Origin: Nitrososphaerota archaeon
GTDB lineage: Archaea > Thermoproteota > Nitrososphaeria > Nitrososphaerales > UBA57
Reading direction: 5' to 3'
DNA length: 20,746 bases
Assembly (NCBI GenBank): GCA_002713205.1
Contig: PAVW01000017.1
Location: 1 to 20,746 of the forward strand
The notes beneath the pieces are model-generated. The model was given only the letters and a program-made list of their open reading frames with translations. It did not search any database and was not told where the DNA came from. This document shows positions 2,537-20,652 of this stretch, in pieces (positions within the stretch are counted from its first letter, which is position 1; every line of letters starts with the position of its first letter). A program made the position numbers and the translations under genes.

Positions 2537-3619
2537 TTAATGAATCATTTTTTCTTTGACTAGAATTTCAGCCATTAATACAGTGCCTTTAGCAGCACCC
2601 ATACGTGTATTATGTGAAACAAGGACATATTTAATACCATTAGGAAAAACTTCATCTTTTCTAATTCGACCAATGGAAGTAGTCATTCCTCCTTCCGAAT
2701 CTCTATCTAATCTTGGCTGTGGTCTAAATGGATCATCCATAATTGTTAGTAATTGATTAGGAGCCGATGGAAGATCCATATCTGATAAACAATCTGAAAA
2801 AGATTTCATCGCCTCTTTTATTTCATCGACTTCGGCCTTATTCGATGTTATTACTAAAACAGATTCTGTATGACCATCAAGAACGTTTACTCTAGTACAT
2901 GTTGAAGACACTTTAAACGAAGCATTTTGAATAACTTCTCCAGATTTTTGCCCCAAAATTTTTAACGCTTCAATTGATACTTTTTCTTCTTCTTGTGGAA
3001 TATATGGAATTATATTATCTACTAAATCTAATACTGCTATACCTGGACTTCTTCCAGCACCTGATACTGCCTGTAATGATGTCATAATTACTGATTCTAT
3101 TCCAAATTTATCTTGAATGGGTTTAAGAGTAAAAGCTAATCCTGTAGTTGTACAATTTGCTTGCGGTGATATAAACCCGCTCCAACCTCGTTTCTTTTGC
3201 TCATGTAATATTTGTATATGTTCATTATTTACACCGGGAACAAGTATAGGAACATCTTTTTCATACCTAAATGCAGATGCTGTACTTAATACTGGAATAA
3301 ATTTTGCAAATCGTGGTTCAATTCTTTGTGCTGCATTAGTTTCTAATGCTGAAAATGCAACATCAAATTTTTCTGGATTTACTAGATCTCCATCTTCAAC
3401 AATCATATTATTTATTTCTGTCTTGGATTGTTCTTTACAAAACCATTGAATAGAACCATTTTGATTTTTGATTGCATCAATATATCTTTTACCCGCTGAA
3501 TTCTTTGATGCTGCAAGACCGGTTATTTCAAACCACGGATGATTCTGTAATGCTGTAATGCATTGTTGTCCAACTATTCCAGTTGCACCTATGATTATTG
3601 TTTTATACATAATTTTCAC
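2537..3619 (-). CDS. asd: Aspartate-semialdehyde dehydrogenase
   Basis: N-terminal NADP fold IIGATGIVGQ, active-site Cys context QANCTTTG, and C-terminal SHNTRMGAAKG. It lies between aspartate kinase and the Lrp gene. The track start is GTG at 3617-3619; ATG at 3608-3610 (MYKTIIIGATG) is an equally plausible start. Confidence 0.85.
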   Translation of the reverse strand: MKIMYKTIIIGATGIVGQQCITALQNHPWFEITGLAASKNSAGKRYIDAIKNQNGSIQWFCKEQSKTEINNMIVEDGDLVNPEKFDVAFSALETNAAQRIEPRFAKFIPVLSTASAFRYEKDVPILVPGVNNEHIQILHEQKKRGWSGFISPQANCTTTGLAFTLKPIQDKFGIESVIMTSLQAVSGAGRSPGIAVLDLVDNIIPYIPQEEEKVSIEALKILGQKSGEVIQNASFKVSSTCTRVNVLDGHTESVLVITSNKAEVDEIKEAMKSFSDCLSDMDLPSAPNQLLTIMDDPFRPQPRLDRDSEGGMTTSIGRIRKDEVFPNGIKYVLVSHNTRMGAAKGTVLMAEILVKEKMIH

Positions 3620-3620
3620 T

Positions 3621-5009
3621 TTATTTGTCCATGTTAAATTGTTTATGGATAGCTTCTGTAGCCAATTTACAATCTGATTCTTTAACTACGAAAGAAATAT
3701 TTTGTTCTGATGAACCCTGTGCAATCATCTTTACATTTATATTCTTACTTGAAATTGCACTAAATAATTTTGTAGCTACGCCGTGAGTTCCCTTCATACC
3801 AGCTCCTATAATTCCTATTACTGCCACTTCATCATCAGAATGAATATTATTAACACTACTTTTTCCTAGTAATCCGACTTGAAGAACACTAACTGCCTTT
3901 TGTAATTCATTTTGTTTGATGAGAAATGTTATATTTGCTTCTGAAATGCTTTGAGAAATCATTATTATATTGACATTATTTCGTCCTAATATACCAAATA
4001 TTTCACCTGCAGTACCAATGTTGCCTACCATGTTCATTCCAGATACAGTAACCATTGCTAGATTATTTATTATTGTGATTGCTTTTGTTATTTCATCTTT
4101 CTTTACATTTACCTCTTCATTTATCAAAGTACTCGGACCTTCTGGATCGAATGTGTTCTTTATTCTAACTGGAATATTAGCTAGTTTGGCAGGTTCCAAT
4201 GCTCTCGGGTGCATTCCTTTCGAACCCATTATTGCCATTTCTGTTGCTTCATTATATGATAATTGTGGAATTGTTTTTGCATTTGGATAGATTTTTGGAT
4301 TTGCTGTTAATAATCCATTCACATCTGTCATTATCCATATTTCATCTACGTCAAAACACATTCCGATTAAAGATGCTGTATAATCTGATCCACCACGACC
4401 TATTGTTGATATTTCCCCTTGTTGTGTAACGCCAATAAATCCTGTTATTACCGGTACTGTTTTCTCTAATCCTGATAAATTCTTCTTTATGTTATGTTGA
4501 GTAACTTTTACCAATGGTGATGCATTACCAAAGTTTTCATCAGTCATAATTCCAATTTCTCCTCCTGTGAAAGATTTTGATTCTATACCTGCATCTCTTA
4601 ACTTTGCTGATATTATAAGAACAGCTAATCTTTCTCCAAATGAAAGAATTTTATCTAATGTTTTATTACTTAATTCTTTAACCGTTATTACTCCATTGAC
4701 TGTTTTTTCCAACTCTTCAAGTAATACTGATATAGATTCCAATAATTCATTTTGAATTTTTTTATCATGAATAATCTCACTAGCTGTTTTTTTGTGTCGT
4801 TGTGTTATAATATCAAAAACCTCTAATTCCATTTTTCCTTTCTTTGCACTTTCTGCTAATTTAACTAATTCATCAGTAGTTGAGTGTAAAGCAGAAGATA
4901 CAACAATAATTTGATTTTTTTCATTTAATTTGCTTACAAAATCACAAACTTTATTTATCCTTTTTCCATTTCCCACCGACGTACCGCCAAATTTTATTAC
5001 TATTTTCAA
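3621..5009 (-). CDS. lysC: Aspartate kinase (catalytic domain plus C-terminal ACT domains)
   Basis: KFGGTSVG at the N-terminus and GRGGSDYTAS. The C-terminal region is duplicated and ACT-like. The start codon is TTG (5007-5009), 1 nt after the hom stop. Confidence 0.9.
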   Translation of the reverse strand: MKIVIKFGGTSVGNGKRINKVCDFVSKLNEKNQIIVVSSALHSTTDELVKLAESAKKGKMELEVFDIITQRHKKTASEIIHDKKIQNELLESISVLLEELEKTVNGVITVKELSNKTLDKILSFGERLAVLIISAKLRDAGIESKSFTGGEIGIMTDENFGNASPLVKVTQHNIKKNLSGLEKTVPVITGFIGVTQQGEISTIGRGGSDYTASLIGMCFDVDEIWIMTDVNGLLTANPKIYPNAKTIPQLSYNEATEMAIMGSKGMHPRALEPAKLANIPVRIKNTFDPEGPSTLINEEVNVKKDEITKAITIINNLAMVTVSGMNMVGNIGTAGEIFGILGRNNVNIIMISQSISEANITFLIKQNELQKAVSVLQVGLLGKSSVNNIHSDDEVAVIGIIGAGMKGTHGVATKLFSAISSKNINVKMIAQGSSEQNISFVVKESDCKLATEAIHKQFNMDK

Positions 5010-5010
5010 T

Positions 5011-6021
5011 TTAAACCCTCATATTCTGTTTAATTTCTACCAAATCTCTAATAATTGCACTAGCTGTTTCCATACCTCCTGCACCTTTACCAATAATAAT
5101 TTCCTCACCTGCAAATTCCGTTGTAAATTTAACAGAATTTAATGCACCTTTTACACACATTGGATCCTCTCTTGAAATCTCTATTGGACTCACTTTTGCC
5201 GACTTGTTTATACTTGCAATCAATTTAATCGTATTTCCATTACCTTTTGCTTTAGAAATATCTTTTTGTGTTATATCCCTTATACCTTTCACAGATAAGT
5301 CATTTAATACCAAATCTTTGTTTAATAATAAATTTCCCATTATCACCAATTTTGCGGCTGCATCAAATCCATCCACATCCAATGTTGGATCTGATTCAGC
5401 ATAACCCAATTTTTTCGCTTCATTTAACGCATCATTAAAACTTAATCCACGATTATCCATTTCTGTTAAAATATAATTTGTAGTCCCATTTAAAATTGCA
5501 TTTATTTCAAGTATTCTGTCTGCTTCAAGACATTTTCTTCCAAATTCTAGAATTGGTGTACCTCCTCCTACTGCTGCACTGTATTTTAAAATTACATTAT
5601 TGTAATTTGCTTTTTCAATTAAAGAAGAAAATGCAATTGCCAATGGTCCTTTATTTGCAGTTATGATATTTTTTTTAGTTTTTATTGCAATATCAAGTAG
5701 ACTGTTTGACGGTTCACCGTTTTGTATATTTGTAGGCGTCGCTTCAACCAAAAGTTCGGCATCAACTTCTTCAATTAATTCTATTGCTGTTTTATCTTTG
5801 TTACCTATTGATAGTTCTGAAATTGATTTGCCAGCTTCTTTTATATTAATTATATCGTTAATTTTTATTCCTTTTTCATTTATTGCCACGCCTTTTGAAT
5901 CTGCCGCCGCAACAATTGTTGGATCTAGTCCATAGTCTGACAGAAGATCTTGTTTACGATTAAGTAATAATTGACAAAAACTTTTTCCAATAGTTCCAAG
6001 TCCAATTAATATTGTTCTCAA
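5011..6021 (-). CDS. hom: Homoserine dehydrogenase
   Basis: N-terminal GLGTIG dinucleotide fold, and DPTLDVDGFDAAAKLVIMG, typical of the HSD catalytic domain. TTG start (6019-6021) is preceded by an in-frame TAA and a GGAG at 11-nt spacing. Confidence 0.85.
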   Translation of the reverse strand: MRTILIGLGTIGKSFCQLLLNRKQDLLSDYGLDPTIVAAADSKGVAINEKGIKINDIINIKEAGKSISELSIGNKDKTAIELIEEVDAELLVEATPTNIQNGEPSNSLLDIAIKTKKNIITANKGPLAIAFSSLIEKANYNNVILKYSAAVGGGTPILEFGRKCLEADRILEINAILNGTTNYILTEMDNRGLSFNDALNEAKKLGYAESDPTLDVDGFDAAAKLVIMGNLLLNKDLVLNDLSVKGIRDITQKDISKAKGNGNTIKLIASINKSAKVSPIEISREDPMCVKGALNSVKFTTEFAGEEIIIGKGAGGMETASAIIRDLVEIKQNMRV

Positions 6022-6104
6022 TTATACTCGCACTCCTTTTGCATATTTAACAAGTTATTTACATTAACTTAAACATAATATTGAATTCACTTTGTATTAA
6101 TTTT

Positions 6105-6139
6105 ATTCTATTAGAATGCCTTATTATGTAATTTTACAT
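6105..6139. promoter_or_regulatory. Two AT-rich palindromes in the hom / thrB divergent promoter region (candidate operator sites)
   Basis: ATTCTA-T-TAGAAT at 6105-6117 is a perfect 6+1+6 palindrome. ATGTAATTTTACAT at 6126-6139 matches 6/7 per half-site and lies 17-30 nt upstream of the thrB ATG. Chance palindromes are common at this AT content. Confidence 0.25.
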
Positions 6140-6155
6140 AATTTCACTGAAGCAG

Positions 6156-7100
6156 ATGAAAAAAAGAATTAAAAATGTTACGGCAATTGGACCTGCATCA
6201 AGTGCAAATTTGGGTTCCGGTTTTGATTGTTTTGCCATCGCATTAGATGATATTTTTGACACTGTCAAAATTAGCTTGAATTCTAAGCCTGATGTAATTA
6301 TTAAAAATATTAGTCAAACTAAAAATATTCCAACCCAACCTAATGAAAATACAGGAGGCTTGGTTGCATTAAATATAATTAAAGAATTCAATTTGCCTAA
6401 TGTAACACTAGGTATAAAAAAAGGTGTACCGCCTGGTAAAGGACTAGGTAGTAGTGCTGCAACCGCATCTGCAGTTGCAGTTGGTTTAAACAAAATGTTT
6501 TCTTTGAATTTATCTAAACATGAACTTTTAAAATTTGCTGCAAGTGGTGAAATTGCTTCTGCTGGTGTTGCACACTCAGATAATGTAGCTGGTTCATTGT
6601 TTGGCGGTTTTGTTGTTGTTTCTTCTTTTCCTAAAATTAATATAGCTTCTTTTTCTCCTCCTAAAAATTTACGTGTATGTATTGGAATTCCTAAAATAAA
6701 TACACCGCCAAAAAAAACAGGGTTGGCAAGAAAATTATTACCAAAAAGTGTAAAGTTTTCAGATGCCGTTATTAATATTTCTAATGCTGCAATGATGGTT
6801 GCTGGTTTTTCAAAGAGAGATGAAAATATTATTGGCGCATCTATGCATGATTCAATTGTAGAACCGGCAAGAGTATCTATGATACCTAATTATAAAAAAA
6901 TTAAAGCGCAAGTTTTAAAATCTGGTGGACTTGGTATGGCAATAAGTGGTGCAGGTCCTTCTGTTATTGTCTTTGTAAATACAAATCAACTTGTACAAAA
7001 TAAAATTAAAAAAATAATTAAATCTGGTTTTAAATCTGCAGGTTATAATTCCTCATTACTTATGACCAAAATTGGTAAAGGAGCTAGAGTGATTAAATAA
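6156..7100 (+). CDS. thrB: Homoserine kinase (GHMP kinase)
   Basis: PASSANLGSGFD and the GHMP motif PPGKGLGSSAATASA. Confidence 0.9.
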   Translation: MKKRIKNVTAIGPASSANLGSGFDCFAIALDDIFDTVKISLNSKPDVIIKNISQTKNIPTQPNENTGGLVALNIIKEFNLPNVTLGIKKGVPPGKGLGSSAATASAVAVGLNKMFSLNLSKHELLKFAASGEIASAGVAHSDNVAGSLFGGFVVVSSFPKINIASFSPPKNLRVCIGIPKINTPPKKTGLARKLLPKSVKFSDAVINISNAAMMVAGFSKRDENIIGASMHDSIVEPARVSMIPNYKKIKAQVLKSGGLGMAISGAGPSVIVFVNTNQLVQNKIKKIIKSGFKSAGYNSSLLMTKIGKGARVIK

Positions 7101-8323
7101 TGTTGTTAAAATGTATAAATTGTTCATATACATACGATATTGATAAAATAATTTATTTATGTGAAAAATGTAATGATTTGTTAGAAGTAGTTTATGATTT
7201 GGATAAAATCGGAAATAAATTGGATTCTACTTGGAAAAACATTCCATTAAGTGTTTGGAAATATCAACCGTTATTGCCAATTGATACAAACATTGATAGA
7301 GTTACTTTATCAGAGGGCGGAACTCGACTTCATCGTTTGAATAAATTTTCAAGTTTCATTAACATTAAGAATTTATATGTTAAAAATGAAGGCGATAATC
7401 CTACTGGTTCCTTTAAGGATCGTGGAATGTCAATTACTGTTACAAAGGCCAAGAGTTTGGGGGCTTCCATTATTGCTTGTGCTTCCACTGGAAATACTTC
7501 TGCTTCACTTGCTGCTTATGGTGCACGTGGTGGCATGAAACGTATAGTTCTAATTCCTACGGGCAAAGTGGCATATGGAAAACTTTCTCAAGCTATGGTT
7601 TGCGGAGCTAAAGTTATTCAAATTGAATCGAATTTTGATAAATGTCTTGAAGTTATTATGGAATTATCGGCTAATTTCCCTGATATTTATTTAGTAAATT
7701 CAATTAATCCTTTTAGAATTGAAGGTCAAAAAACCTTAGCTTTTGAAATTATAGACCAATTGGGTCACGTTCCTGATTGTATAATTGTTCCTATTGGGAA
7801 TGCAGGTAATATTAGTGCTATTTGGAAAGGAATGAGAGAATTCTTAGAACTAGGACTTATTGATAAATTACCAAGAATGATTGGTGTTCAGGCAGAAGGT
7901 TCTTCACCCGTAGTTTCTGCTTTTAAAGCCAAAAAAATGGAAGCGACTAAAATATTGAAACCAGATACTATTGCTACTGCAATTCGAATAGGTGCCCCTG
8001 CTAGTTCAAAAAAAGCACTCCGTGCTATTTACGATTCGAAAGGCTATGCAGAACGAGTTAGTGACAAAGAAATACTTGAAGGACAAATGAATTTGGCCAA
8101 ACTTGAGGGTATATTCGTAGAACCTGCTAGTGCTTCTCCCATAGCGGCATTAAAAAAATTAATTCGTAAAGGGATAATATCATCTGATGATGAAGTCGTT
8201 TGCATTGCAACCGGAAACGGTTTAAAGGATCCTGATGTTGTTACTAATTTCTTAAAAAAACCTTTAGAAGTCAAAGCGGATTTAACTTCTATTAAAAATG
8301 TAATTGATGATGAGATGGAATAA
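7100..8323 (+). CDS. thrC: Threonine synthase (PLP-dependent) with N-terminal CxxC...CxxC zinc ribbon
   Basis: PLP-lysine motif GSFKDRG, plus GNAGN and ASTGNTSAS. N-terminal CINCS...CEKCN. The ATG overlaps the thrB TAA by 1 nt (TAATG). Confidence 0.9.
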   Translation: MLLKCINCSYTYDIDKIIYLCEKCNDLLEVVYDLDKIGNKLDSTWKNIPLSVWKYQPLLPIDTNIDRVTLSEGGTRLHRLNKFSSFINIKNLYVKNEGDNPTGSFKDRGMSITVTKAKSLGASIIACASTGNTSASLAAYGARGGMKRIVLIPTGKVAYGKLSQAMVCGAKVIQIESNFDKCLEVIMELSANFPDIYLVNSINPFRIEGQKTLAFEIIDQLGHVPDCIIVPIGNAGNISAIWKGMREFLELGLIDKLPRMIGVQAEGSSPVVSAFKAKKMEATKILKPDTIATAIRIGAPASSKKALRAIYDSKGYAERVSDKEILEGQMNLAKLEGIFVEPASASPIAALKKLIRKGIISSDDEVVCIATGNGLKDPDVVTNFLKKPLEVKADLTSIKNVIDDEME

Positions 8324-9934: not shown

Positions 9935-10000
9935 CATGTTATTCGCATATTCTCACATATTTTTACATATTCTCACATATTCTAGCATGTTATTGCATGG
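9935..10000. repeat. Helically phased CAT-decamer array bracketed by a 13/14-bp direct repeat
   Basis: Decamers start at 9946, 9956, 9966, 9976, 9986 and 9996: catattctca / catattttta / catattctca / catattctag / catgttattg / catggtgatt. The 15-mer catattctcacatat is perfect at 9946-9960 and 9966-9980. catgttatt(c)gcat occurs at 9935-9948 and 9986-9998. Confidence 0.85.
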
Positions 10001-10414: not shown

Positions 10415-10422
10415 CTTATATA
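10415..10422 (+). promoter_or_regulatory. Candidate TATA box (CTTATATA) for the large envelope-protein gene
   Basis: It lies 37 nt upstream of the ATG at 10459. The same octamer occurs upstream of the Lrp gene. The predicted short leader would include the AAGGAG at 10445-10450. Confidence 0.35.
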
Positions 10423-10444
10423 GCAAAACAAGTCAACTTCGTTT

Positions 10445-10450
10445 AAGGAG
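10445..10450 (+). promoter_or_regulatory. Shine-Dalgarno-like AAGGAG
   Basis: The aaggag ends 8 nt before the ATG at 10459. Confidence 0.45.
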
Positions 10451-10458
10451 TATATAGT

Positions 10459-13400
10459 ATGAACTATAATTTTAACTCAGAATGGCTTTTCTCAAAGCAA
10501 TTCAAAGCAGCGACAGTAACATTCTTACTAGCAGCTAGCATGCTCTTGTTTGCAGGAGTCGGTATGGCACCTCAAGCAGCAGCAGCTAACACAGGAACAC
10601 TCACACTCTCTCAAGGACAAATGTTCGGAAACATGACAGTGCAGATCACTGTAAATGATCCTGACATCAATGTTGCAGCGGTAAAAGATACCTACAATAT
10701 TGGTCCTATAATAACATGGACAAACACTTCAGGTGTTTACTACATTAATTCAACACAATCACTCGGTGGCTCATGGAATGCATATGCTACGGACGCATTA
10801 TATGTTGCACAGACATGCAGTATATCTAATGTAATGTACCGAGCAAATCTTACCGCGAGCGACAAATCTAACAATGCATCTCACGCAAGGTATCATCCAG
10901 GACACGCAGCAGCAGGTTCTGGTGCAAACGGTCTAACGCAGGGTTCATGTGCACGTTCGCACATTGAAAACTTCCACTTGGATCAAGGTGTACCTTCCAC
11001 ACGAACTTATGCAAACCACTCATATGATGGTGGTTCAGCAACAAAGTTATCAACAACTCACAGCATTGCAAATGACCCAATGATTCACATGTTTAACATA
11101 ACAAGAGGACACACAATAACAATCACGTACAAAGATGCGTCAGATTCAACAGGAACTTCAAAAGATGTCAGCGCTACTTTGCTTTACAAAGAGACCAAGC
11201 CAGTATTAGATAATAATGGGAAAACTGAAATTACCCCTCAAGAGCTACTCAATCTTAGAGTAACTCATATGGATAGGAATAATGACCCTACCAAGAAAGA
11301 TCACTTTAGTGTAAGTAACAATTCAGAAAGCTTACGACTAAGTATATCTAGTTCTTCAAATACAACATTGGCAAACCTTGTCAATAAGACTCTACTTTAT
11401 TCATGTACCATTCAAGGTATAGTAAGATCCACAGGAAAAGGCTGTCAATCTGATGGCTCATCCAATTGGCAATTGAACTTTACAGAAACAGGTATTAACA
11501 CAGGTATATTTGATCTATCCGTAGGAAGTGATAAGTTTAACATGAGTAACCTTCATGTTAACGACAGTTCTCACGCAACGGTCGTTACATCAGCAGCCGC
11601 ACTTAAGACAAATAAATTGGTGCGCGATGGTAGTACGCTGAAATCACTTTGGTCAAATGGAGATAAATTTAAGATCTCTATGAAGACTTATCCAAATACG
11701 GGTAACGAGTACAACGCTACGTCGTGTACTACTGCAAGAGGAAGCTCTAGCAATAGTAACGGGCACTGTACCAATGCAACTTCAGTAACCTTCACGATTA
11801 AAGAAACATCTAGCACATTAACGGCAAGTGCAACCACATTGAGCTTTAGTGACGATGTCACGTTCACTATGGAAGACTTTGATCAGAATAGTGATGCAAC
11901 TGTAAAAGACACTATTGCAACTGTTTATGCAGAAATTAACGACAGTTCTCCTATAACCGTAACGGCTAAGGAAAGCGCAGTTAATTCAAGTAGTTTCACA
12001 TTTACTGTTAGAGCGACAATTGGTACATACACCTCTGGTTGTAGTTTCAGTACTACATACAGTAGACTGACATGTACAATTGATCCGTCTCAGGCAAAGA
12101 GCACAGTTATTGATGTTACGTACACTGACCAACATACGGCAGCAGTGCGTTCACTTTCACTAACCTTTGTCACAACTGCAGCAACTGTAACAACTTCTGT
12201 CACATCGATAGATGAAAGCGCAACTAGTTTCAAGATCACATATGAGGATCCAGATTCTAATGATGCGTCAGCTACTGCAGAACAACTGTTATTCAATGCT
12301 ACGAATACAGTAGGTAGATGTGTCTGTATGGGTGGTGATAGCGATATACCTGGTATATACCATGGAACTGTTGTCAATAGAAAGAAGGTAGCTAACTTTA
12401 CCATTACAAAGATTAATGGTACAAACGGTTATCATGACTTGACAAACGCCTCTGGCCTCATTACTGAGACCGATAAAGATACAGGTATTTGGGAACTCAC
12501 TGTTACATTAGCATCATTGAGGACAAGCCTCGATGTTCGTGGTGGAACAGGTCCATTAGGACTCACTGCAGGTGACAAACTTGTTGTTTCAGTTAAAGAT
12601 CAATTTGATGCAACTACAACAAATATCACTATTACAATTGGTGGTACTATTGGTACACTTGCATGGGATCGTACGGACTTTCCAATAACTGTAGATCACG
12701 CATCAACAGGTCTTGCACGTAACCAAAGTAGAGTTAATGCAACTATAACACTAACAGATTCTGACAAGAACACAAATGCTAATGCCAAGGATAATGCAAC
12801 ATTACGACTCCGTATATTGAACGGAACTGGTAAAGTTGTTGGTAATACACGAGGCGGTAGTACAATTACAATTGCTTCAGCCGCATTAGGATACCTATCC
12901 TGGTATAATGTAACTGCACAAGAAACTGGCGTAGATACTGGAGTATTCACGTTTAAGATGGGAATCAACTGGGGTAATGCTAACGCTGATATACCTACAG
13001 TTATGAACTATTCTAAACCAACTCAATTGTACTATGCATTAGATACAATGAAAGACATGATTGGAGGATCAATCTGTGCTGAATGGCAAGATGGTGCTGC
13101 AACTAGCAATATTACAACAGCTCATAGTGGAGCAGGAGTAATAACTGGTAACGCGGCCAAGAAAGGAGTTAGCTCCTGTCTTGATATCACAGCACATGAT
13201 GCAACTATCTCAGCTAATATAACCACTGGTAAATTAGGCGATGTTTTGGAAGTAACCGCTACAGAACCTGATTATAACCGTGATGTAGCAGTGAAAGATA
13301 AACTCTACATGTTGATAATTGGTACAAACAAGCAGGACAAACCATCAGAAACAGATACAGCACAATATAACTTGACTGTAGCCTTAACTGAAACTGGCGT

Positions 13401-14640
13401 AAACACAGGCGTATTTGCCAAGAATATCACCTTAGAACCAGGTAAATCACCATTTGCCTCAACTTTGGCGGCTAATTCATACCTCAGATTCAGAATCAGA
13501 GACAATGCAACATCTAACAGCTTCTATTCTGGAGCTGGTCTAGCAAGAGCATCTGCAACACATGCAGTTACGGTGACATCAACAACCACCACTCTTGAAC
13601 TAACACCAGGTGATGCATCAGGTCCAGATGGTAAGGTCTATATCAAGCTTACTGACCCTGATTTGATGACAACTGCAGCAAGTAGTATGCAAATGACAAA
13701 GATAGTTTCCAATGGAACTGATGACGTAGAGAAACCCTATGCATCCAACGGAACTACTTCGACAGGTACATACTGGTTCGCTATTACGATGGCAAGATCA
13801 ACTGGATCGCCAACTAACGAAGATGGCACTCTACATGTCAATGGTACAGATATAGTATACTTCTACTATACTGATACTAAGGACGCTGCTGGAGTAATCC
13901 AAGTTATATCAGCCACGTTGAACATCAAGACAGAAGCTGGAGCAGTATCACTTGATAAAGTCAATTACTTAGTCGCTGAATTCGCAACGATTTCAGTAAC
14001 TGACCTTGACGCAAACACAAGTCCAGATACCAAGCAATCAATCACAGTCAAAGCAAGTACTGAAAGCTGGGAAGTCGGAACTACTATCACACTCCAAGAA
14101 ACTGGAGCTGATACCGATGTATTCACAGGCCAAGTAGAACTAATTGCAACCACCAAGGGCGTACCTAGTGGAGCACAAGTATCTGCATCAGTCGGCGATA
14201 CATTAACTATCAAGTACACAGACACACTCTGTGATGACTCGAAGAAATGTTACATATACGCAACTGCAAAAGTAGGCCAAGCCCTGTCAAAGACAGAGCA
14301 AGTACCAGCTGGAGATCCAGAAATAGTTGACACATCAGGTAATTTGATAGTAAGTCCAAATGTAGGAGATATCCTCATTATACAGGCATCAATTACCAAT
14401 GATGATGACGTAGCTCACACAATAACATTCTTGGTACAAATCAAGAATGCTGACGGCGAAATCGTCAACTTAGGTTGGGTAAGAGACATTGAACTTGCAG
14501 TAGACGAATCACAGACACCAGGAATGTCTTGGTTACCTGATTCAGCAGGAACATACACAGCAGAAGTATACGTATGGGACAGCCTAACATCGGCTGTAGC
14601 ACTATCACCAGTGAAGAGCACAAGCTTCACTGTTGGCTAG
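10459..14640 (+). CDS. Large secreted, acidic, heavily sequon-decorated multi-domain surface protein; probable S-layer lattice glycoprotein with no membrane anchor
   Basis: N-terminal signal (KAATVTFLLAASMLLFAGVGMAPQAAAA). About 37 N-x-S/T sequons by hand count. Thr/Ser/Ala/Asn-rich, with ~134 D+E versus ~95 K+R (hand count). Eight tandem beta-sandwich-like repeats plus a C-terminal CARDB/Ig-like domain (aa ~1290-1393). It ends ...STSFTVG with no TM segment or sorting signal. It is flanked by glycosylation genes. Confidence 0.75.
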   Translation: MNYNFNSEWLFSKQFKAATVTFLLAASMLLFAGVGMAPQAAAANTGTLTLSQGQMFGNMTVQITVNDPDINVAAVKDTYNIGPIITWTNTSGVYYINSTQSLGGSWNAYATDALYVAQTCSISNVMYRANLTASDKSNNASHARYHPGHAAAGSGANGLTQGSCARSHIENFHLDQGVPSTRTYANHSYDGGSATKLSTTHSIANDPMIHMFNITRGHTITITYKDASDSTGTSKDVSATLLYKETKPVLDNNGKTEITPQELLNLRVTHMDRNNDPTKKDHFSVSNNSESLRLSISSSSNTTLANLVNKTLLYSCTIQGIVRSTGKGCQSDGSSNWQLNFTETGINTGIFDLSVGSDKFNMSNLHVNDSSHATVVTSAAALKTNKLVRDGSTLKSLWSNGDKFKISMKTYPNTGNEYNATSCTTARGSSSNSNGHCTNATSVTFTIKETSSTLTASATTLSFSDDVTFTMEDFDQNSDATVKDTIATVYAEINDSSPITVTAKESAVNSSSFTFTVRATIGTYTSGCSFSTTYSRLTCTIDPSQAKSTVIDVTYTDQHTAAVRSLSLTFVTTAATVTTSVTSIDESATSFKITYEDPDSNDASATAEQLLFNATNTVGRCVCMGGDSDIPGIYHGTVVNRKKVANFTITKINGTNGYHDLTNASGLITETDKDTGIWELTVTLASLRTSLDVRGGTGPLGLTAGDKLVVSVKDQFDATTTNITITIGGTIGTLAWDRTDFPITVDHASTGLARNQSRVNATITLTDSDKNTNANAKDNATLRLRILNGTGKVVGNTRGGSTITIASAALGYLSWYNVTAQETGVDTGVFTFKMGINWGNANADIPTVMNYSKPTQLYYALDTMKDMIGGSICAEWQDGAATSNITTAHSGAGVITGNAAKKGVSSCLDITAHDATISANITTGKLGDVLEVTATEPDYNRDVAVKDKLYMLIIGTNKQDKPSETDTAQYNLTVALTETGVNTGVFAKNITLEPGKSPFASTLAANSYLRFRIRDNATSNSFYSGAGLARASATHAVTVTSTTTTLELTPGDASGPDGKVYIKLTDPDLMTTAASSMQMTKIVSNGTDDVEKPYASNGTTSTGTYWFAITMARSTGSPTNEDGTLHVNGTDIVYFYYTDTKDAAGVIQVISATLNIKTEAGAVSLDKVNYLVAEFATISVTDLDANTSPDTKQSITVKASTESWEVGTTITLQETGADTDVFTGQVELIATTKGVPSGAQVSASVGDTLTIKYTDTLCDDSKKCYIYATAKVGQALSKTEQVPAGDPEIVDTSGNLIVSPNVGDILIIQASITNDDDVAHTITFLVQIKNADGEIVNLGWVRDIELAVDESQTPGMSWLPDSAGTYTAEVYVWDSLTSAVALSPVKSTSFTVG
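10645..14223 (+). repeat. Eight divergent protein-level tandem domain repeats (116-205 aa each) inside the large surface protein
   Basis: A recurrent motif trio. (D/E)xDxNx(D/N)xxxKD starts at aa 67, 272, 473, 597, 767, 938, 1066 and 1182. (T/Q)ETGxxTGxF occurs at aa 342-351, 669-678, 821-830, 977-986 and 1213-1222. Closing strands are of type hxhxYxD (ITYKD, VTYTD, VSVKD, FRIRD, FYYTD, IKYTD). Confidence 0.7.
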
Positions 14641-14648
14641 GAGAGGAG
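14639..14648 (+). promoter_or_regulatory. Tandem Shine-Dalgarno (AGGAGAGGAG) overlapping the upstream stop codon
   Basis: In ctAGGAGAGGAGcattaaTTG, the first AGGAG shares its AG with the TAG stop (14638-14640). The second ends 6 nt before the TTG at 14655. Confidence 0.55.
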
Positions 14649-14654
14649 CATTAA

Positions 14655-15827
14655 TTGCCCTCCCCCCTCTATTTTTTCCAGAATAGTTCTGGAAAAGACG
14701 TAACTCTAGCATTAGTACTGTCAGTACTGTTGATTGCAGCAGCACCCGTTGCTTTTGCAGCCGTAACACTCGCCGCTGGTCAGGATGAATTTAATCCTGG
14801 CGATCAGTTGACTGTTACAGGTACAGCAGCACCAGATGAGGACATAACGTTCAAAATAGCAAATCCAAATGGAGCACAAGTAGGAGTTGGACAAACTTCA
14901 GCTGATGCGAATGGAGCTTTCTCAGCAACATTGTTGAGATTCCCTTCAGCCGCAACTACTACGTTCCCATTCGGAAGTTATACTGTAACTGCCACAGGTT
15001 CTAGTGGAGATGACACAGAGATTACTGTGACATTTACCGAATCTGCAGCCGCAGCACCCGCTCCGGCACCTGCAGCACCTGCAGCAGTAGCAGCTAGCAC
15101 AGGGCTATCTGTATCAGTATCTGTCTCTGGAACATACAACTCTGGTGATTCAGTATCGATCTATGTAGTAACAACCGATGATGGCGTACTACGAGACGTA
15201 ACATTACAAATTGTACAAGTAAATGGACCAGGTGGTTCTGAAAATATACGAAGTACATGTAATCGCGTTTCAACTGGTCTAAATCGTTGTTCGTACACTG
15301 TTAGTGGAGGAGTAGGCACCTATGCCGTGCTTGTAAGCGCATCATCAAATAGTGGTTCAAACGCAGGCGTTGCGACGTTCCAAGTCGCGGATGAGATTGA
15401 AGTTAATATCCCACCCGCAGCACCAGGAGCCGCACCTGCTAATCTTGCACCACTTGAAAATGCAATTAACAATGTAGCACGAGATGTTGACGCACTTGAT
15501 GACCGACTTGGTAATGTACAAAACGCTGTTAATGGAATATCACTTCCTGCAGCAGGTGCAAACCTCGGTCAAATTAGTAGTGCATTGAATGCTGCAGCAG
15601 CAGACATTAAATCAGCAGTCTCAGGAGCTCAAGCAGCAGTATCGGATGACGTTGGCGCAGCAGAAGACAATATAGAAAATGCAGTTGATGGAATTGCAAG
15701 TAGCACAAAATCAGCAGCAGAGGGTTCTTCACAAGCCGCTTCAATGGCCATGATAGCCGCAGTTCTTGCAGCTATTTCAGTCATACTACAAATAGTCGTA
15801 ATAGTTAGAGGAAATATCCTTAAATAA
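14655..15827 (+). CDS. Secreted, C-terminally membrane-anchored coiled-coil protein; candidate S-layer stalk/anchor subunit (SlaB-like architecture)
   Basis: Signal peptide VTLALVLSVLLIAAAPVAFA. Two beta-rich domains (aa ~36-128 and ~149-246) separated by an Ala/Pro linker AAAAPAPAPAAPAAVAA. Clean 4-3 heptad spacing L267-I271-V274-V278-L281-L285-V288-V292-I295, with further Ala-rich heptads to aa ~360. C-terminal TM MAMIAAVLAAISVILQIVVIV followed by RGNILK. The only usable start is TTG at 14655, directly after an in-frame TAA. Confidence 0.7.
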   Translation: MPSPLYFFQNSSGKDVTLALVLSVLLIAAAPVAFAAVTLAAGQDEFNPGDQLTVTGTAAPDEDITFKIANPNGAQVGVGQTSADANGAFSATLLRFPSAATTTFPFGSYTVTATGSSGDDTEITVTFTESAAAAPAPAPAAPAAVAASTGLSVSVSVSGTYNSGDSVSIYVVTTDDGVLRDVTLQIVQVNGPGGSENIRSTCNRVSTGLNRCSYTVSGGVGTYAVLVSASSNSGSNAGVATFQVADEIEVNIPPAAPGAAPANLAPLENAINNVARDVDALDDRLGNVQNAVNGISLPAAGANLGQISSALNAAAADIKSAVSGAQAAVSDDVGAAEDNIENAVDGIASSTKSAAEGSSQAASMAMIAAVLAAISVILQIVVIVRGNILK

Positions 15828-15834
15828 CCAAGGT

Positions 15835-15872
15835 AGCGCGTTTAACGCGCTCCACCTTTTTTTTTTATTTTT
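15835..15872 (+). terminator. GC-rich hairpin followed by a T10-A-T5 tract, ending the envelope-gene operon
   Basis: Stem agcgcg (15835-15840) pairs with cgcgct (15846-15851) around loop tttaa. T10 follows at 15857-15866, then a, then ttttt. It begins 8 nt after the TAA at 15825-15827. Confidence 0.7.
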
Positions 15873-15972: not shown

Positions 15973-16746
15973 TTGAAAATAGTTGGGGCGATGCAAGTTG
16001 GAGGAAATTGTTCTTGGATACTGCCTAAAAGTCTCGATAATCTTGCATCAATTGTTGACGAAATTGTGGTAGTTGGTTCAGGAATAGTATCCCAAGAAAC
16101 CATTAAAATAGTTAACCAGAACTCCAATGTTATCGCTAAACATTTTCAGAATCAAGAAGAACCAAGAATCGAGTGGAACGACATGAATCTCTTATTAAAA
16201 ATGTCTCAACAGCGTAATGCAGATTGGATCTTGTTTATGGACGCAGACGAAACTTTTGAACCCCGTTTAAAAAATCAAATTCAACAATTGGTGAATACAT
16301 TAGATGTTGGAATGTACAAATTCAAAAAATTTTGGCTATGGAAAAGTAAAGAATATTATCGTACTGATCATCCTGAAAAATATTCAACAATAGCTTACAA
16401 TACATATCTAGTAAGATCTACATCTTCTTTACGATTTCCCAATCCTGCCGGATCATTTCTGAAAAGAGTAGTCAAACATCTTATTGGTAAAGAAAAATTA
16501 AAACCATATTTTGGTCGTGAACCTATTACTGGAATACTTGGGAAAGTAATTGAAACTGATATTGTAGTACTGCATCATGCAGCATTAAATTGGAACCAAT
16601 TTGTAAAAAGTCAAATGTGGTACGCCGCATTACTTACAAAAAGACAACCACGACGTCCAGAACTGGATATTATTGAACAACAGTTCAAAATTTTGGATGA
16701 ATCTACTCTTGAATTAAAACCTGTCAAAAAAGAATGGTTTGATTAG
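15973..16746 (+). CDS. GT-A fold glycosyltransferase (family-2-like, atypical nucleotide-binding motif)
   Basis: Beta-1 KIVGAMQV. IVVVGSGIVSQETIKIV sits in place of the usual VVDDGSTDxT. A DxD block is present (ILFMDADETF). The start is TTG at 15973, or ATG at 15991, which would remove beta-1. Confidence 0.55.
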   Translation: MKIVGAMQVGGNCSWILPKSLDNLASIVDEIVVVGSGIVSQETIKIVNQNSNVIAKHFQNQEEPRIEWNDMNLLLKMSQQRNADWILFMDADETFEPRLKNQIQQLVNTLDVGMYKFKKFWLWKSKEYYRTDHPEKYSTIAYNTYLVRSTSSLRFPNPAGSFLKRVVKHLIGKEKLKPYFGREPITGILGKVIETDIVVLHHAALNWNQFVKSQMWYAALLTKRQPRRPELDIIEQQFKILDESTLELKPVKKEWFD

Positions 16747-16754
16747 GATACAAA

Positions 16755-18248
16755 TTGAGTAAAGTAAGGATCGCTTATGCAGGAATGGTTGGTTATCTAT
16801 CATCACTCTTCAATCTCATTACTGGATTTTTATTTATCATAATAATCACACGTAATTTAACAATCCAAGAATTTGGATCTTGGCAAGTAATAGCATCTGT
16901 AATTGGTTACGCATTAATTCCTGCAATAATTCCAAGCTACTGGTCATTTCGTAACGTAGCTCGTGGACAAAGAATAGCCACAACAAGTTTCATTATAAAT
17001 GCAGTCTTATCGTTATTTGGAATAGCTATCTTTTTGTGTATACTGACATTTATTCTCCCTGATATATCACTGCCTATCCAAATAGTTTTACTTGCTACTT
17101 GTCAGGTTCCAATTGCATACATGTTTACTTCAGTTAAAACCACTGCTCATGGGAATAAGGTTGAAGCTATTGGTTATTCGTCATTTTTGATGGAAACAGT
17201 CAAAATACTAGTAGCGTATATATTGATTTCTCAAACTAACTTAGGACTCGCAGGAGCTTTTATCACTGTTTTAATTGCCACTTCGATTCAGATTCTATTT
17301 CTTGCAGTAATGGTGAAAAACCAATTTCTTAAAAAATTACATCGTGATAATATTAAAAAATGGTTCAAATCTGCTTGGGTTCCTCTCTTTACAGATATTT
17401 CAAATAAACTCCTAACTTTGGATGTTGTTTTAATAACTCTACTTACAAAAAGTACAGAAACTGTTGCATATTTTAAAAGTGCTTATGTCTTTGCTATAAT
17501 TCTTTTTAATACACAACAATTTGCTATTGCCTTACGTACTAAATTACTACAAGGCGGTAATAAAAATGATATAGAATCGACATTGAAATTAATTTTGTTT
17601 TTTACTATTCCATTAATTGCAGGCTGTATAACAATGGCAAAACCTCTTCTTTATATTCTTAATCCATTATATGTTCAGGCAGAAATCACTTTACAAATAC
17701 TTTCCGTCGGTATATTCTTTTACACTATTTCCCACGTTTTTAATTTGATTTTAACTGGGATAGATGATGTTGATAAATATGGAGAAACACGATTTAATGT
17801 TCTAAAAAATAGTTTTCTAGTAAAATTACCCACAATAGATGGCATATTTCGCTTCATTTACTTGATTCTGTTGTCCTCCTCAGTAATATTAATAACGCGA
17901 AATGAATTGAGCTATGATTTGACCATGATATGGGCTACCTTGTTTTTTATAACACATATTCCTCTTGTAATAATAAAATGGAATTTTATTCACGTCAATA
18001 CAGGAACGCGTTTTCCCTATAAGACTATAATGACGACTTGCTTTTCCTCTTTAATAATGTCATTTGTAGTGTTATCTCTAACACCTCGTATAAATTATAA
18101 TCCCAATATAATTGATTTTATATTTCCAGTCATTGGTATTATAGCATTGGGTGCTTTCTTATATTTTTCAATTCTCTTGATAATTGATCAAGATTTTAGA
18201 AAATTATCAATGGAATTCATAACAAAATACATTGTAAAAAATACTTGA
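16755..18248 (+). CDS. Polysaccharide/oligosaccharide flippase (Wzx-type, MOP superfamily)
   Basis: 497 aa and roughly 12-14 predicted TM helices. N-terminal ITRNLTIQEFGSWQV resembles the Polysacc_synt signature. Adjacent to glycosyltransferases. The start is TTG at 16755 or ATG at 16785. Confidence 0.6.
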   Translation: MSKVRIAYAGMVGYLSSLFNLITGFLFIIIITRNLTIQEFGSWQVIASVIGYALIPAIIPSYWSFRNVARGQRIATTSFIINAVLSLFGIAIFLCILTFILPDISLPIQIVLLATCQVPIAYMFTSVKTTAHGNKVEAIGYSSFLMETVKILVAYILISQTNLGLAGAFITVLIATSIQILFLAVMVKNQFLKKLHRDNIKKWFKSAWVPLFTDISNKLLTLDVVLITLLTKSTETVAYFKSAYVFAIILFNTQQFAIALRTKLLQGGNKNDIESTLKLILFFTIPLIAGCITMAKPLLYILNPLYVQAEITLQILSVGIFFYTISHVFNLILTGIDDVDKYGETRFNVLKNSFLVKLPTIDGIFRFIYLILLSSSVILITRNELSYDLTMIWATLFFITHIPLVIIKWNFIHVNTGTRFPYKTIMTTCFSSLIMSFVVLSLTPRINYNPNIIDFIFPVIGIIALGAFLYFSILLIIDQDFRKLSMEFITKYIVKNT

Positions 18249-18276: not shown

Positions 18277-19383
18277 CTAAATGAACCATGCGACAAGTAG
18301 AATTATACCACAAATTGCATAAATTATTGAAAAAATTAATAATGAATTATTTTTGAAAATTACTGTTGGCATTTTATATATGCTTGGGGCTAATGAAACT
18401 AGTCTGAAATATCCTGCAAAATAAGAATATGCAGGCTGAACAATTGCACTAAAGATTAATAGATATAGACTAAATTTATCTTCTCGATTTTTTATTAAAA
18501 CAATAATCGACATTACTACTGCAATGAATACACTCCAAGTTATTATCTCATTTACAATTAAATTATAACCAGTTATCATGGGTGTATCAACACCTCCAAA
18601 AAATCTATTCTGAAAGAAAGTATAAAATGGAATTCCTAACATACTATGTGCAATTCCTGAACCGATTCCTGACGTAAATCGTAGAAAATGCTCTAAACCA
18701 AATCTTGAAACCAAATAAAGTCCATGAATACTAATGGTTGCTAATGGAATCATAAAATATTTCATCCAATTATCTTTTTTTTCCATTATAAAGAAAGGAA
18801 ATGTAAACACTACAAAATCAGGTCTAGTTACACATGCAAGTGATAGAAACACACTACTCTTGCCAAATTTGTTTTCCCGAAAAAGTAGATATGATGTAAA
18901 AATGAGAAAAAAGAAAAGTGGTTCGTTCATTGCACCATGAGTCGAAATAAGCATTATTGGACTGAAGGCATAAAAAATTGTTGAAATTCCATATCCTTCA
19001 ACTTTTACTATTTTGTAAAAAATAGCCACACTTGCAGAAAAGAAAATTATATTAATTACTTCCATTGAAATTGCAGTTAAATTTGCATCTCCTTGCGCTA
19101 TGAAATATGTCAATACAGGATAAAGGAAGGTGGCATATCTAAAACCAGAGTCTACTGGAGGATCAGAAAATGGATCTAAAGCAATTTTATAATATGCAGC
19201 CCCATCTGTATTTGCATCTCTTGAAAAATCAAATACAGTCAATCCATATTGTAAACAAAACAAATAAAATAGCAGATTAAATAAAAATACTATTAAGAAA
19301 ATATTTCTCGCATGTAATTTCTTTTTCAATAATATTTGAACTTTTGACAGTTCCATTAGAATTATATATTTTATTTCTCGCAT
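18277..19383 (-). CDS. Polytopic membrane protein, possible GT-C fold glycosyltransferase (PIG-V/DUF2029-like mannosyltransferase resemblance)
   Basis: About 10 hydrophobic helices. The first loop DANTDGAAYYKIALDPF...FRYATFLYPVL resembles the D..Y..IA..GY...AFFPLYP pattern of PIG-V-type enzymes as I recall it. It lacks the WWDYG motif and is too short for AglB. Confidence 0.4.
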   Translation of the reverse strand: MREIKYIILMELSKVQILLKKKLHARNIFLIVFLFNLLFYLFCLQYGLTVFDFSRDANTDGAAYYKIALDPFSDPPVDSGFRYATFLYPVLTYFIAQGDANLTAISMEVINIIFFSASVAIFYKIVKVEGYGISTIFYAFSPIMLISTHGAMNEPLFFFLIFTSYLLFRENKFGKSSVFLSLACVTRPDFVVFTFPFFIMEKKDNWMKYFMIPLATISIHGLYLVSRFGLEHFLRFTSGIGSGIAHSMLGIPFYTFFQNRFFGGVDTPMITGYNLIVNEIITWSVFIAVVMSIIVLIKNREDKFSLYLLIFSAIVQPAYSYFAGYFRLVSLAPSIYKMPTVIFKNNSLLIFSIIYAICGIILLVAWFI

Positions 19384-19434
19384 ATTAAGTTTAATATTAA
19401 GAATCGATTTTCATTAAGAGAAGTGATACTTTTA

Positions 19435-20652
19435 TTAGTCTTTGTTTTTTATTATTTTTAATTCTGGCATTGGAATTATATAATTTATCTTTGAGTATTT
19501 TTCTTCTACTTTCTTTATTATCTCATCTGCATAATTCCATGCAAAAATCATCAAATAATCTGGTTTTCTTTTAAGTAATATATCAGGACTTGTTATTGGA
19601 ATATGACTTCCAGGAGTAAACAAACCCTGCTTTAAAGGCGAATCTTCAATTATTAGTTCAATATGTTTGTTGTTCAGGCCAATGGAATTAATTATAGTGC
19701 TAGATTTCGCAGGTGCTCCATATCCAAAAATAGTTTTATTTTCATTACAGATTTTATTAACCAAATTGTTAATTTCTTGTATATTTATTTCTAATTTTTG
19801 ACTGAATTCTTCCATAATTTGAAAATTGCCAATTTGGTCTGATCTTTCTTCTTGAAGCAAACTAAGTACATTCTGATTGGGTCTAGAATCCTTTGACACG
19901 TATACTCTGATTGAACCTCCATGTGTTGGTATTTTTTCTATATCAACTATATTCATTTTATGCATTTGAAAGAGATTCACAAGTGAATGTACAGTATAGT
20001 ACATTACATGTTCATGGTATATATTGTCAAAAGTAAGTTCCTTTAGCATATCTGCAAAGTATTGTACTTCAAATATGAATATCCCCTTTTCATTTAACAG
20101 TAATTTCACATTTTCGATAAACTCATGATAATTTTCCAAATGCGCAAATACGTTGGATGCTGTTATTATGTCTACATTGCCTGTTTTATTAATCATCTTG
20201 TTTACTGTTTTTCTATCGAAATAACTACATATTGTATCTAGTCCGTTCTTGTTTGCAATTGATGCTAGATTAGTAGCAGGTTCAATTCCTATTGCACTAA
20301 AGCCTATCTCTAGTAACGGTTTAAGTAATATTCCATCATTTGAACCTATATCTACCACTGATTCTGCATTTGGAAACGATTCTTTTAGTTTATGTGCGAA
20401 TTCATTAAAATGATTTCTAAGTCCTCCTGATATTGATGACGCATATGCATAATTCAAAAATAAATTGTCTCGTTCAACAAAACTCTGATCAGTTAATTGT
20501 ATTAATAGACATTTACTGCAAAAAGTTAGTTCAAGCGGATATATTCTTTCATTATTAAAATCTTCTCTCTTTAAGAAAGCGTTTGCAGGTGGTTGATTAT
20601 TTAAAGATAAAAAATCCCTTAACTCTTCACTCTTACACGATCTGCATTTCAT
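19435..20652 (-). CDS. SAM-dependent NDP-sugar C-methyltransferase (TylCIII-like: N-terminal Zn ribbon, class I MTase, C-terminal C-methyltransferase domain)
   Basis: MKCRSCKS...LTFCSKCLLIQL (4-Cys Zn site followed by the NAFL motif), SAM motif VVDIGSNDGILL, and a ~400-aa length typical of the family. Confidence 0.7.
   Translation of the reverse strand: MKCRSCKSEELRDFLSLNNQPPANAFLKREDFNNERIYPLELTFCSKCLLIQLTDQSFVERDNLFLNYAYASSISGGLRNHFNEFAHKLKESFPNAESVVDIGSNDGILLKPLLEIGFSAIGIEPATNLASIANKNGLDTICSYFDRKTVNKMINKTGNVDIITASNVFAHLENYHEFIENVKLLLNEKGIFIFEVQYFADMLKELTFDNIYHEHVMYYTVHSLVNLFQMHKMNIVDIEKIPTHGGSIRVYVSKDSRPNQNVLSLLQEERSDQIGNFQIMEEFSQKLEINIQEINNLVNKICNENKTIFGYGAPAKSSTIINSIGLNNKHIELIIEDSPLKQGLFTPGSHIPITSPDILLKRKPDYLMIFAWNYADEIIKKVEEKYSKINYIIPMPELKIIKNKD

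Follow-up and report, generated by a model that had tools for sequence, protein, structure and literature searches.

A stretch of 20,746 nucleotides of archaeal DNA (referred to here as the window; Nitrososphaerota archaeon, NCBI GenBank assembly GCA_002713205.1, contig PAVW01000017.1, positions 1 to 20,746 of the forward strand) contains two adjacent genes, slp and slaB, which together probably constitute the S-layer module of a marine thaumarchaeon. The larger gene would encode a secreted lattice protein of the type of NmSLP, the S-layer protein of Nitrosopumilus maritimus, and the smaller gene a membrane stalk of the SlaB family that holds the lattice on the cell. The first-pass annotation of the window, made from the letters alone, had described the pair as an anchorless surface glycoprotein coupled to a SlaB-like coiled-coil membrane anchor. 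Open reading frame (ORF) analysis returned both genes at the positions given by that annotation, and its anatomical description of the two proteins was largely reproduced; its simple view of the operon and its claim to novelty fared less well. The gene anatomy, the homologies and the synteny of the pair were observed directly, and the parts of the two genes are as follows (positions are those of the window).

10459-14640, plus strand: S-layer protein gene (slp), ATG start, 1393 aa, read as an ORF
13915-14637, plus strand: conserved C-terminal two-domain module of the S-layer protein (residues 1153-1393), corresponding to NmSLP domains 9-10 on the membrane-facing side
14290-14637, plus strand: terminal domain of the S-layer protein, a beta-sandwich (residues 1278-1393) and a candidate for docking
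14655-15827, plus strand: SlaB-type anchor gene (slaB), TTG start, 390 aa, read as an ORF
14655-14762, plus strand: SlaB signal peptide (residues 1-36)
14763-15038, plus strand: SlaB beta-sandwich domain D1 (residues 37-128)
Residues 129-147 of SlaB: Ala/Pro linker
15096-15392, plus strand: SlaB beta-sandwich domain D2 (residues 148-246)
Residues 247-263 of SlaB: Pro/Ala linker
15444-15725, plus strand: helical stalk, consisting of a heptad coiled coil (residues 264-296), a break (SLPAAGA) and an Ala/Ser-rich helix (residues 304-357)
15735-15824, plus strand: C-terminal transmembrane (TM) helix (residues 361-384, from hydropathy) and basic tail RGNILK

Sequence, architecture and gene position together support the placement of the 390-aa protein in the wider SlaB family. 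Its hydrophobic segments lie at residues 11-43 and 358-390, and the C-terminal TM helix, which with its short basic tail is the single one originally proposed, is near-invariant among close homologues. An AlphaFold2 monomer model (mean predicted local distance difference test score, pLDDT, of 53) shows strands at residues 38-127 (pLDDT 70-82) and 151-244 (pLDDT 60-70) and helices at residues 265-389, and the strand regions agree with the two beta-sandwich-like domains and Ala/Pro linkers that had been read from the sequence. DSSP assigns helices to residues 265-293 and 304-357 of this model, with the low pLDDT that is expected for a monomer model. The residues listed as the core of a coiled coil (L267/I271/V274/V278/L281/L285/V288/V292/I295) each occupy an exact a/d position of the heptad, the hydrophobic period over residues 264-296 being 3.5, and the second stalk helix (residues 304-357) has a hydrophobic period of 3.6-3.7. 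The features sought in a SlaB protein, namely sequence homology, a signal peptide followed by beta-sandwiches, a coiled-coil stalk, a TM helix with a basic tail, and the gene position, were all found.

The homology search covered a large family. A profile of 13 close homologues, run against 1.8 billion cluster representatives, returned 404 relatives, 148 of which were inspected; a TM helix with a basic tail ends the protein in 91 of these 148. The NCBIfam model for SlaB of Metallosphaera (NF040788) matches residues 19-164 of the 390-aa protein (E 3.9e-11), with a score of 42.5 that is far below the equivalog cut-off of 700 bits. The same model matches 54 of 60 full-length family members (best E 5.8e-91), many of the 60 also matching coiled-coil families such as SMC and Rad50, and a profile of these 60 matches the whole of Sulfolobus acidocaldarius SlaB (8qox_B; E 4.8e-46). 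Direct comparison with the N. maritimus SlaB (A9A4Y8) gave a BLASTP E of 2e-13 and a full-length hhalign probability of 96.5%, and D1 of Metallosphaera sedula SlaB is 33% identical over 85 aa (E 1e-12). When the 390-aa model was compared with the PDB by Foldseek, 8qox_B alone covered the whole model (E 3e-8), and what else matched were tandem MG domains of complement proteins. A Pfam scan of the 390-aa protein gave a weak MG2 match, and Pfam overall offered weak MG2 and PKD hints only. The matches to NF040788, A9A4Y8 and 8qox_B agree with the SlaB-like architecture that was initially suggested.

The 1393-aa protein (MBE19109.1 at NCBI, labelled 'hypothetical protein') begins with a signal peptide of approximately residues 1-43, residues 15-40 being its sole hydrophobic segment by hydropathy, and it has 37 N-X-S/T sequons, 14 cysteines and a net charge of -40. 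Since no cysteine lies near the N-terminus the protein has no lipobox, and since the C-terminus is not hydrophobic it has neither a C-terminal TM helix nor a PGF-CTERM-type sorting signal, so that hydropathy and cysteine positions agree with the earlier description of a secreted protein lacking these anchors. Six D-x-D-type strand motifs and four ETGxN(T/D)GxF motifs were counted in addition to the terminal domain. A PDB sequence search aligned residues 1153-1392 with residues 1493-1733 of NmSLP (8c8k, E 1.6e-25), and this C-terminal module is 33% identical to residues 1517-1754 of the Nitrosopumilus S-layer protein (E 2e-28). The rest of the protein gave nothing comparable against the Nitrosopumilus protein, its first ~60 residues aligning weakly (E 5e-4). 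Orthologues of slp in metagenome-assembled genomes (MAGs) of the marine HMT lineage, to which the window probably belongs, are 60-61% identical, and identity to them rises from 0.27-0.36 at residues 301-400 to 0.80-0.82 at residues 1301-1393. Domains 9-10 of NmSLP are flexible parts located in the pseudoperiplasm, domain 10 having been proposed as an anchor (PMC11153153); the conserved parts of the window protein likewise appear to point to the membrane-facing side. Beyond NmSLP, the PDB search with the 1393-aa protein returned one chance-level glycosyl hydrolase match (E 0.27) and nothing else, the SlaA chains of 8qox and 7zcx not being returned. Pfam and NCBIfam scans of the protein found no match, the 'SlaA-like' family PF28202, which is listed in the precomputed matches of a related protein, was never returned by local Pfam scans, and a word-index search with the S-layer protein C-terminus yielded five fragments only. 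A secreted, multi-domain protein with the conserved C-terminal two-domain module of NmSLP was therefore found, and comparisons at the sequence level indicate an NmSLP-type lattice protein that is not homologous to the SlaA of Sulfolobales.

The pairing of the two genes was surveyed in 27 related loci that reach the slaB start, 25 of which contain enough upstream DNA to be tested (L015 and L017 being too short). In all 25, the slaB-like gene is preceded at a distance of 14-16 nt by the end of a long ORF (up to ~1400 codons), and L015 and L017 share the junction sequence. The related loci comprise three clades with 52-60% identity in the slp and slaB proteins. In a Nitrosopumilus locus (L034), a 1755-aa S-layer gene (2626-7893) is followed on the same strand by a 334-aa slaB. 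Conservation of the pair among relatives had been named by the first-pass annotation as a check on its own reading, and the pair was kept both in every testable locus and in Nitrosopumilus.

The significance claimed for the pair had been made conditional on a thaumarchaeal host, and the NCBI MAG that encodes exactly these proteins does carry the name 'Thaumarchaeota archaeon' (locus tags CMO11_039xx). The only species-representative genomes with a slaB relative (52-59% identity) include ASW2_bin45, ASW8_bin1 and ATL, which are heterotrophic, pSL12-like marine Thaumarchaeota (PMC7300363; bioRxiv 10.1101/2019.12.22.886556), and the low G+C content of the window fits this heterotrophic pSL12-like group (mean 32.6%). 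Judged by nearest matches rather than phylogeny, the host is probably a member of the heterotrophic, non-ammonia-oxidising marine HMT/pSL12-like lineage. The S-layer is unmentioned in PMC7300363, in bioRxiv 10.1101/2019.12.22.886556 and in a 2026 study of 104 such genomes. In the HMT lineage (window and L001-L003), S-layer proteins have net charges between -34 and -40 and a sequon density of 2.5-2.7 per 100 aa; the strong negative charge of NmSLP-type proteins was not found in the window protein, which has -2.9 charges per 100 aa. The Nitrosopumilus protein (L034) has a charge of -235 (-13.4 per 100 aa) and 1.2 sequons per 100 aa, and SlaB-like proteins have 0-1 sequons. Published S-layer charges are -130 to -285 in Nitrosopumilus, Cenarchaeum, Nitrosarchaeum and Nitrosotenuis and -39 to -77 in soil and acidophilic ammonia oxidisers (PMC11153153). 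We regard strong negative charge as a property of ammonia oxidisers and not as a condition for homology.

The sequences that surround and join the two genes contain the following elements.

10416-10450, plus strand: putative slp expression signals read from the sequence, a TATA-like TTATATA at 10416-10422 and a Shine-Dalgarno-like AAGGAG at 10445-10450, 8 nt before the ATG
14638-14664, plus strand: junction element H1, a predicted hairpin in which the Shine-Dalgarno sequence GGAGAGGAG pairs with CCUC(C)CC just past the start codon
14672-14698, plus strand: T6 run (14672-14677) and hairpin H2 (UUUUUUCCAGAA / UUCUGGAAAAGA)
15835-15866, plus strand: terminator-like hairpin AGCGCG-TTTAA-CGCGCT (stem 15835-15851) followed by T10 (15857-15866), folding z-score -4.0

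The 14-nt gap with a Shine-Dalgarno sequence before the 390-aa gene, as first annotated, was found again on reading the junction. The slp stop codon (TAG, 14638-14640) and GGAGAGGAG (14640-14648) overlap, and 6 nt separate the latter from the TTG at 14655. No ATG, GTG or TTG occurs between this TTG and the signal peptide, and the TTG start is supported by the ATG that relative L010 has at exactly that codon. The start codon (14655-14657) is located within the inner stem of the predicted H1. This hairpin is predicted in all 17 distinct junction variants, at -11.4 to -12.9 kcal/mol; its inner stem is GCA/UGC or CAAC/GUUG depending on the clade, in different registers, and the start codon is paired in both. 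Its outer pairs are invariant and therefore provide no evidence of covariation. The T6 run, 8 nt 3' of H1, is the sole coding-strand run of five or more T in the 5.35 kb of slp and slaB, where a codon shuffle predicts 3.1 +/- 1.6; the other coding regions of the window have 2.7 per kb, and a T5-T6 run is kept in every related locus. Oligo-T tracts are archaeal termination signals. H2, in which the T-run pairs with CUGGAAAA, is likewise predicted for every variant, and L008 retains it through a compensatory change from CCAG/CUGG to CAAG/CUUG. The terminator after slaB was confirmed, but the simple bicistronic operon that had been deduced from this one terminator is an incomplete picture, given the conserved T6 run and the predicted hairpins burying the ribosome-binding site (RBS) at the junction, which the first-pass annotation had missed. 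The slp-slaB junction suggests attenuated, translationally coupled expression of the anchor.

Other observations concern the same non-coding sequences. The Nitrosopumilus spacer (L034, 7894-8000, 107 nt) contains T7CT7 ~25 nt past the slp stop, a TATA-like TTATAGA, and AGGAG before the slaB ATG, which suggests termination plus separate initiation, unlike the overlap-type junction of the window. Approximately five copies of a repeat with a 10-bp period (CATATTCTCA and variants) occupy 9943-9998, ~460-515 bp 5' of the slp ATG and within an 810-bp spacer of 25% G+C upstream of slp; they may be a protein-binding or DNA-bending array. A sigma-70 promoter scan stayed at chance level and is irrelevant to an archaeal host, and the window gave no match in Rfam or tRNA scans.

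In the working model that we favor, the 1393-aa protein would form a secreted, heavily N-glycosylated lattice. The C-terminal helix of SlaB would sit in the membrane, with the ~94-residue helical segment (264-357) projecting outward as a stalk of ~14 nm if it is fully helical and trimeric as in Sulfolobus. The two MG-like beta-sandwich domains (D1-D2) at the stalk tip would be presented to the C-terminal domains of the S-layer protein, and the stalk would hold the lattice through these conserved domains. Tethering of the lattice by SlaB is suggested by the gene linkage and by the conservation of the S-layer protein C-terminus; the oligomeric state, the contact between lattice protein and SlaB, and the regulation of the pair are what we infer. 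The terminal domain also recurs (44% identity, E 4e-31) at the end of ~330-aa secreted proteins with two leading SlaB-D1-like domains, which would fit a functional link between terminal and D1-like domains but is no proof of contact. Proteins of this composition include P0056, P0060, P0072 and P0099.

For expression, both genes would be transcribed from the slp promoter, and the GC-rich H1 together with the only T-run of the operon would act as a leaky terminator after slp. Because H1 is predicted to bury the RBS and start codon of slaB, slaB would be translated mainly when the ribosome finishing slp opens H1, and the junction would keep the anchor level below that of the lattice protein. Leaky termination and coupling are proposed because of the T-run and hairpins and because of the excess of slaA mRNA in Sulfolobales. 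We hold this combination of slp-promoter transcription, leaky termination and coupled slaB translation to be a tentative model, plausible yet somewhat short of an even chance. A broader joint proposal is more doubtful still: that the junction is a conserved RNA device setting the lattice:anchor ratio and, in addition, that the lineage serves as a negative control for the ammonium-sieve model. The parts of such a device would be the hairpin burying the RBS and start codon, the sole T-run of the operon and the second hairpin, and it would operate by leaky termination and termination-reinitiation coupling. An apparent non-ammonia-oxidiser in the same seawater, with about one-fifth of the acidic charge density and twice the glycan sites, would therefore offer a natural negative control for an S-layer ammonium sieve.

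Several observations weigh against a lattice held by a SlaB stalk. No cell of the HMT lineage has been imaged. For N. maritimus, a SlaB homologue at far lower abundance than NmSLP is reported, and self-anchoring through domain 10 has been suggested (PMC11153153). The helical region of the 390-aa model has a pLDDT below 50, and the 390-aa protein carries 0-1 sequons, unlike the glycosylated Sulfolobus SlaB. A single-sequence PDB search with this protein returned nothing meaningful, and 8qox_B is out of reach of a profile restricted to the close homologues; the Sulfolobus link therefore runs through intermediate sequences, and the relation to Sulfolobales depends on these and on the N-terminal domain. 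At the junction, nucleotide identity (0.79-0.81) is only slightly higher than in flanking coding DNA (0.68-0.78), and few of the hairpin pairs vary, so that the RNA-structure evidence is modest.

The main rival explanation is that the lattice anchors itself, its terminal domain binding a membrane-linked glycan or lipid, with the SlaB-like protein as a minor accessory such as a sparse tether, a spacer or an assembly factor. Conservation in the S-layer protein is highest in its terminal domain, which also occurs in the Nitrosopumilus S-layer protein. Its AlphaFold2 model (residues 1278-1393) is confident (pLDDT 88-98), and its best folds by Foldseek are the Wzt carbohydrate-binding domain (template-modelling score 0.66-0.69, root-mean-square deviation 2.3 A) and, nearby, CARDB 3idu (template-modelling score 0.66-0.70). 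There is a glycan-synthesis cluster next to the pair, the predicted effect of the junction features is to restrain SlaB expression, and the low SlaB abundance and the same idea have been published for N. maritimus (PMC11153153). However, a likeness of beta-sandwich folds at 13-16% identity is no demonstration of glycan binding, the linkage at 14-16 nt stays unchanged in clades of only 52-60% identity, and the SlaB architecture is kept from Sulfolobales to Thaumarchaeota, which argues for a conserved structural role. We consider the self-anchoring lattice unlikely, and it and the stalk model are not mutually exclusive.

It is also conceivable that the 1393-aa protein is a large adhesin or another surface glycoprotein and not the lattice. 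Its resemblance to NmSLP is confined to the last 240 aa, its charge is very unlike that of NmSLP, and it comes from a lineage that has never been imaged and whose papers are silent on the S-layer. Against this, its size class, signal-peptide style and position 5' of slaB are as in NmSLP, a single long gene is present in all related loci, and soil and acidophilic ammonia oxidisers likewise have weakly charged S-layer proteins (-39 to -77). The G+C content of slp and slaB is also raised (0.38-0.45 versus ~0.30 in the flanks), with the T/S/A/G-rich composition explaining at least part of the rise in slp. The adhesin explanation is accordingly held to be improbable. That the 390-aa protein is an unrelated coiled-coil membrane protein lying beside a surface protein gene by chance, as the spurious coiled-coil-family matches across the SlaB family and the database names of its Nitrosopumilus homologues might imply, is scarcely credible in view of the specific homology in the SlaB beta-sandwich domain, the conserved synteny, the absence of a chemoreceptor signalling domain in Pfam searches, and the extracytoplasmic location of the helical region, which has a signal peptide before it and, after it, a C-terminal TM helix with a tail of 6 residues. 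The names in question, 'methyl-accepting chemotaxis protein' at NCBI and UniRef (P0315, P0328, P0351 and others), were rejected on topology and domain content, and the label is probably a coiled-coil artefact.

The neighborhood of the pair contains glycosyltransferases, a sugar C-methyltransferase and an AZOBR_p60025-like protein, which are shared within the lineage but rearranged. Directly past the terminator, 15973-16746 encodes a 257-aa GT2-like glycosyltransferase with 60-62% identity to proteins encoded near slaB in related lineages. It is followed at 16755-18248 by a 497-aa polytopic membrane protein that has at least 10 hydrophobic segments, matches no family and may be flippase-like. 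On the minus strand, 18277-20652 encodes a sugar C-methyltransferase and an AZOBR_p60025-like protein ('cell surface glycopolymer formation'); beyond the window these genes are followed by a nucleotide-sugar biosynthesis cluster (L037, 12629-20184), and the AZOBR-like gene lies directly 5' of slp in L001-L003. With such glycosyltransferase and nucleotide-sugar neighbors, the context fits a heavily glycosylated S-layer protein. A PALP-family threonine-synthase-like gene is found upstream of slp both in the window (7100-8323) and in Nitrosopumilus (L034, 1-1078); the two are 36% identical and may represent distant lineages or paralogues.

Comparison with known systems places the pair closest to N. 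maritimus NmSLP (Nmar_1547, 8c8k) and SlaB (A9A4Y8). As in the Nitrosopumilus locus, slp precedes slaB on one strand, the two C-terminal domains of the S-layer proteins are homologous, and the S-layer protein has no anchor of its own; the SlaB proteins share full-length homology, two beta-sandwiches, a helical stalk and a C-terminal TM helix, at only 21% identity. The window S-layer protein differs in its length (1393 aa versus 1734-1755 aa), in the dissimilarity of all but its C-terminal module and weakly similar first ~60 residues, in its charge (-40 versus -212 to -235) and in its twofold sequon density. The junctions differ as well, a 107-nt spacer with T7CT7 in Nitrosopumilus being replaced in the window by a 14-nt gap with an overlapping RBS and a hairpin, and the nearest genomes to the window are non-ammonia-oxidising HMT MAGs.

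The SlaA/SlaB layer of Sulfolobales is an established two-component S-layer (Veith et al. 2009; S. acidocaldarius PDB 8qox). Its slaA and slaB genes are adjacent and bicistronic, slaA mRNA is in large excess over slaB mRNA, and conservation extends to the intergenic regions (PMC5744192). Like the Sulfolobales SlaB, the window protein has a signal peptide, beta-sandwiches, a coiled coil and a C-terminal TM helix, with sequence homology in D1, and its gene lies directly 3' of the lattice gene in one operon. Unlike in Sulfolobales, the lattice protein is unrelated to SlaA; S. acidocaldarius SlaB (475 aa) has three beta-sandwiches and the window protein two, the Sulfolobales stalk is Ser/Thr/Leu-rich whereas that of the window is shorter and Ala/Asp-rich, and the Sulfolobus SlaB is heavily glycosylated whereas the window SlaB has 0-1 sequons. 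Translationally coupled gene pairs in which a hairpin masks the downstream RBS are known from bacteria and phages, the MS2 coat-replicase pair being an example. The window resembles them in that an upstream stop abuts a hairpin predicted to pair the downstream Shine-Dalgarno sequence and start codon, from which, by analogy, a lower, fixed output of the second gene would be expected. It differs in its archaeal host, in the predicted nature of its coupling, and in the T-run right after the hairpin, which suggests an added transcriptional component.

The first-pass annotation had presented a two-component SlaA/SlaB-type S-layer in thaumarchaea as poorly described, a statement contradicted by the literature. 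According to von Kügelgen et al. 2024 (PMC11153153), genes for SlaB homologues occur in N. maritimus and in most Nitrososphaerota, with the C-terminal TM domain as a possible anchor of the canopy. SlaA/SlaB accessions, many of them consecutive, have been listed for ~25 species (PMC11153153), and slp and slaB have been scored across 39 ammonia oxidisers (PMC11559005). Given these published pairs, the system type is already known, and our findings do not overturn its current understanding. What goes beyond published work is the HMT lineage together with the annotation of both genes, the 14-nt overlap-type junction with its predicted hairpins, and the weak S-layer charge. A function is thereby assigned to two 'hypothetical' genes that are abundant in marine metagenomes, and a cell-envelope locus is described for the first time in an apparently heterotrophic marine thaumarchaeal lineage. 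Since the order of lattice gene then slaB is common to the HMT lineage, Nitrosopumilus and Sulfolobales despite unrelated lattice proteins, SlaB looks to be the ancient, conserved half of the module. The weak charge of this marine S-layer protein bears on the proposal that charge is an adaptation for ammonium capture, and if the organism is indeed without ammonia oxidation, the difference in charge fits the ammonium-capture account of the acidic S-layers of marine ammonia oxidisers.

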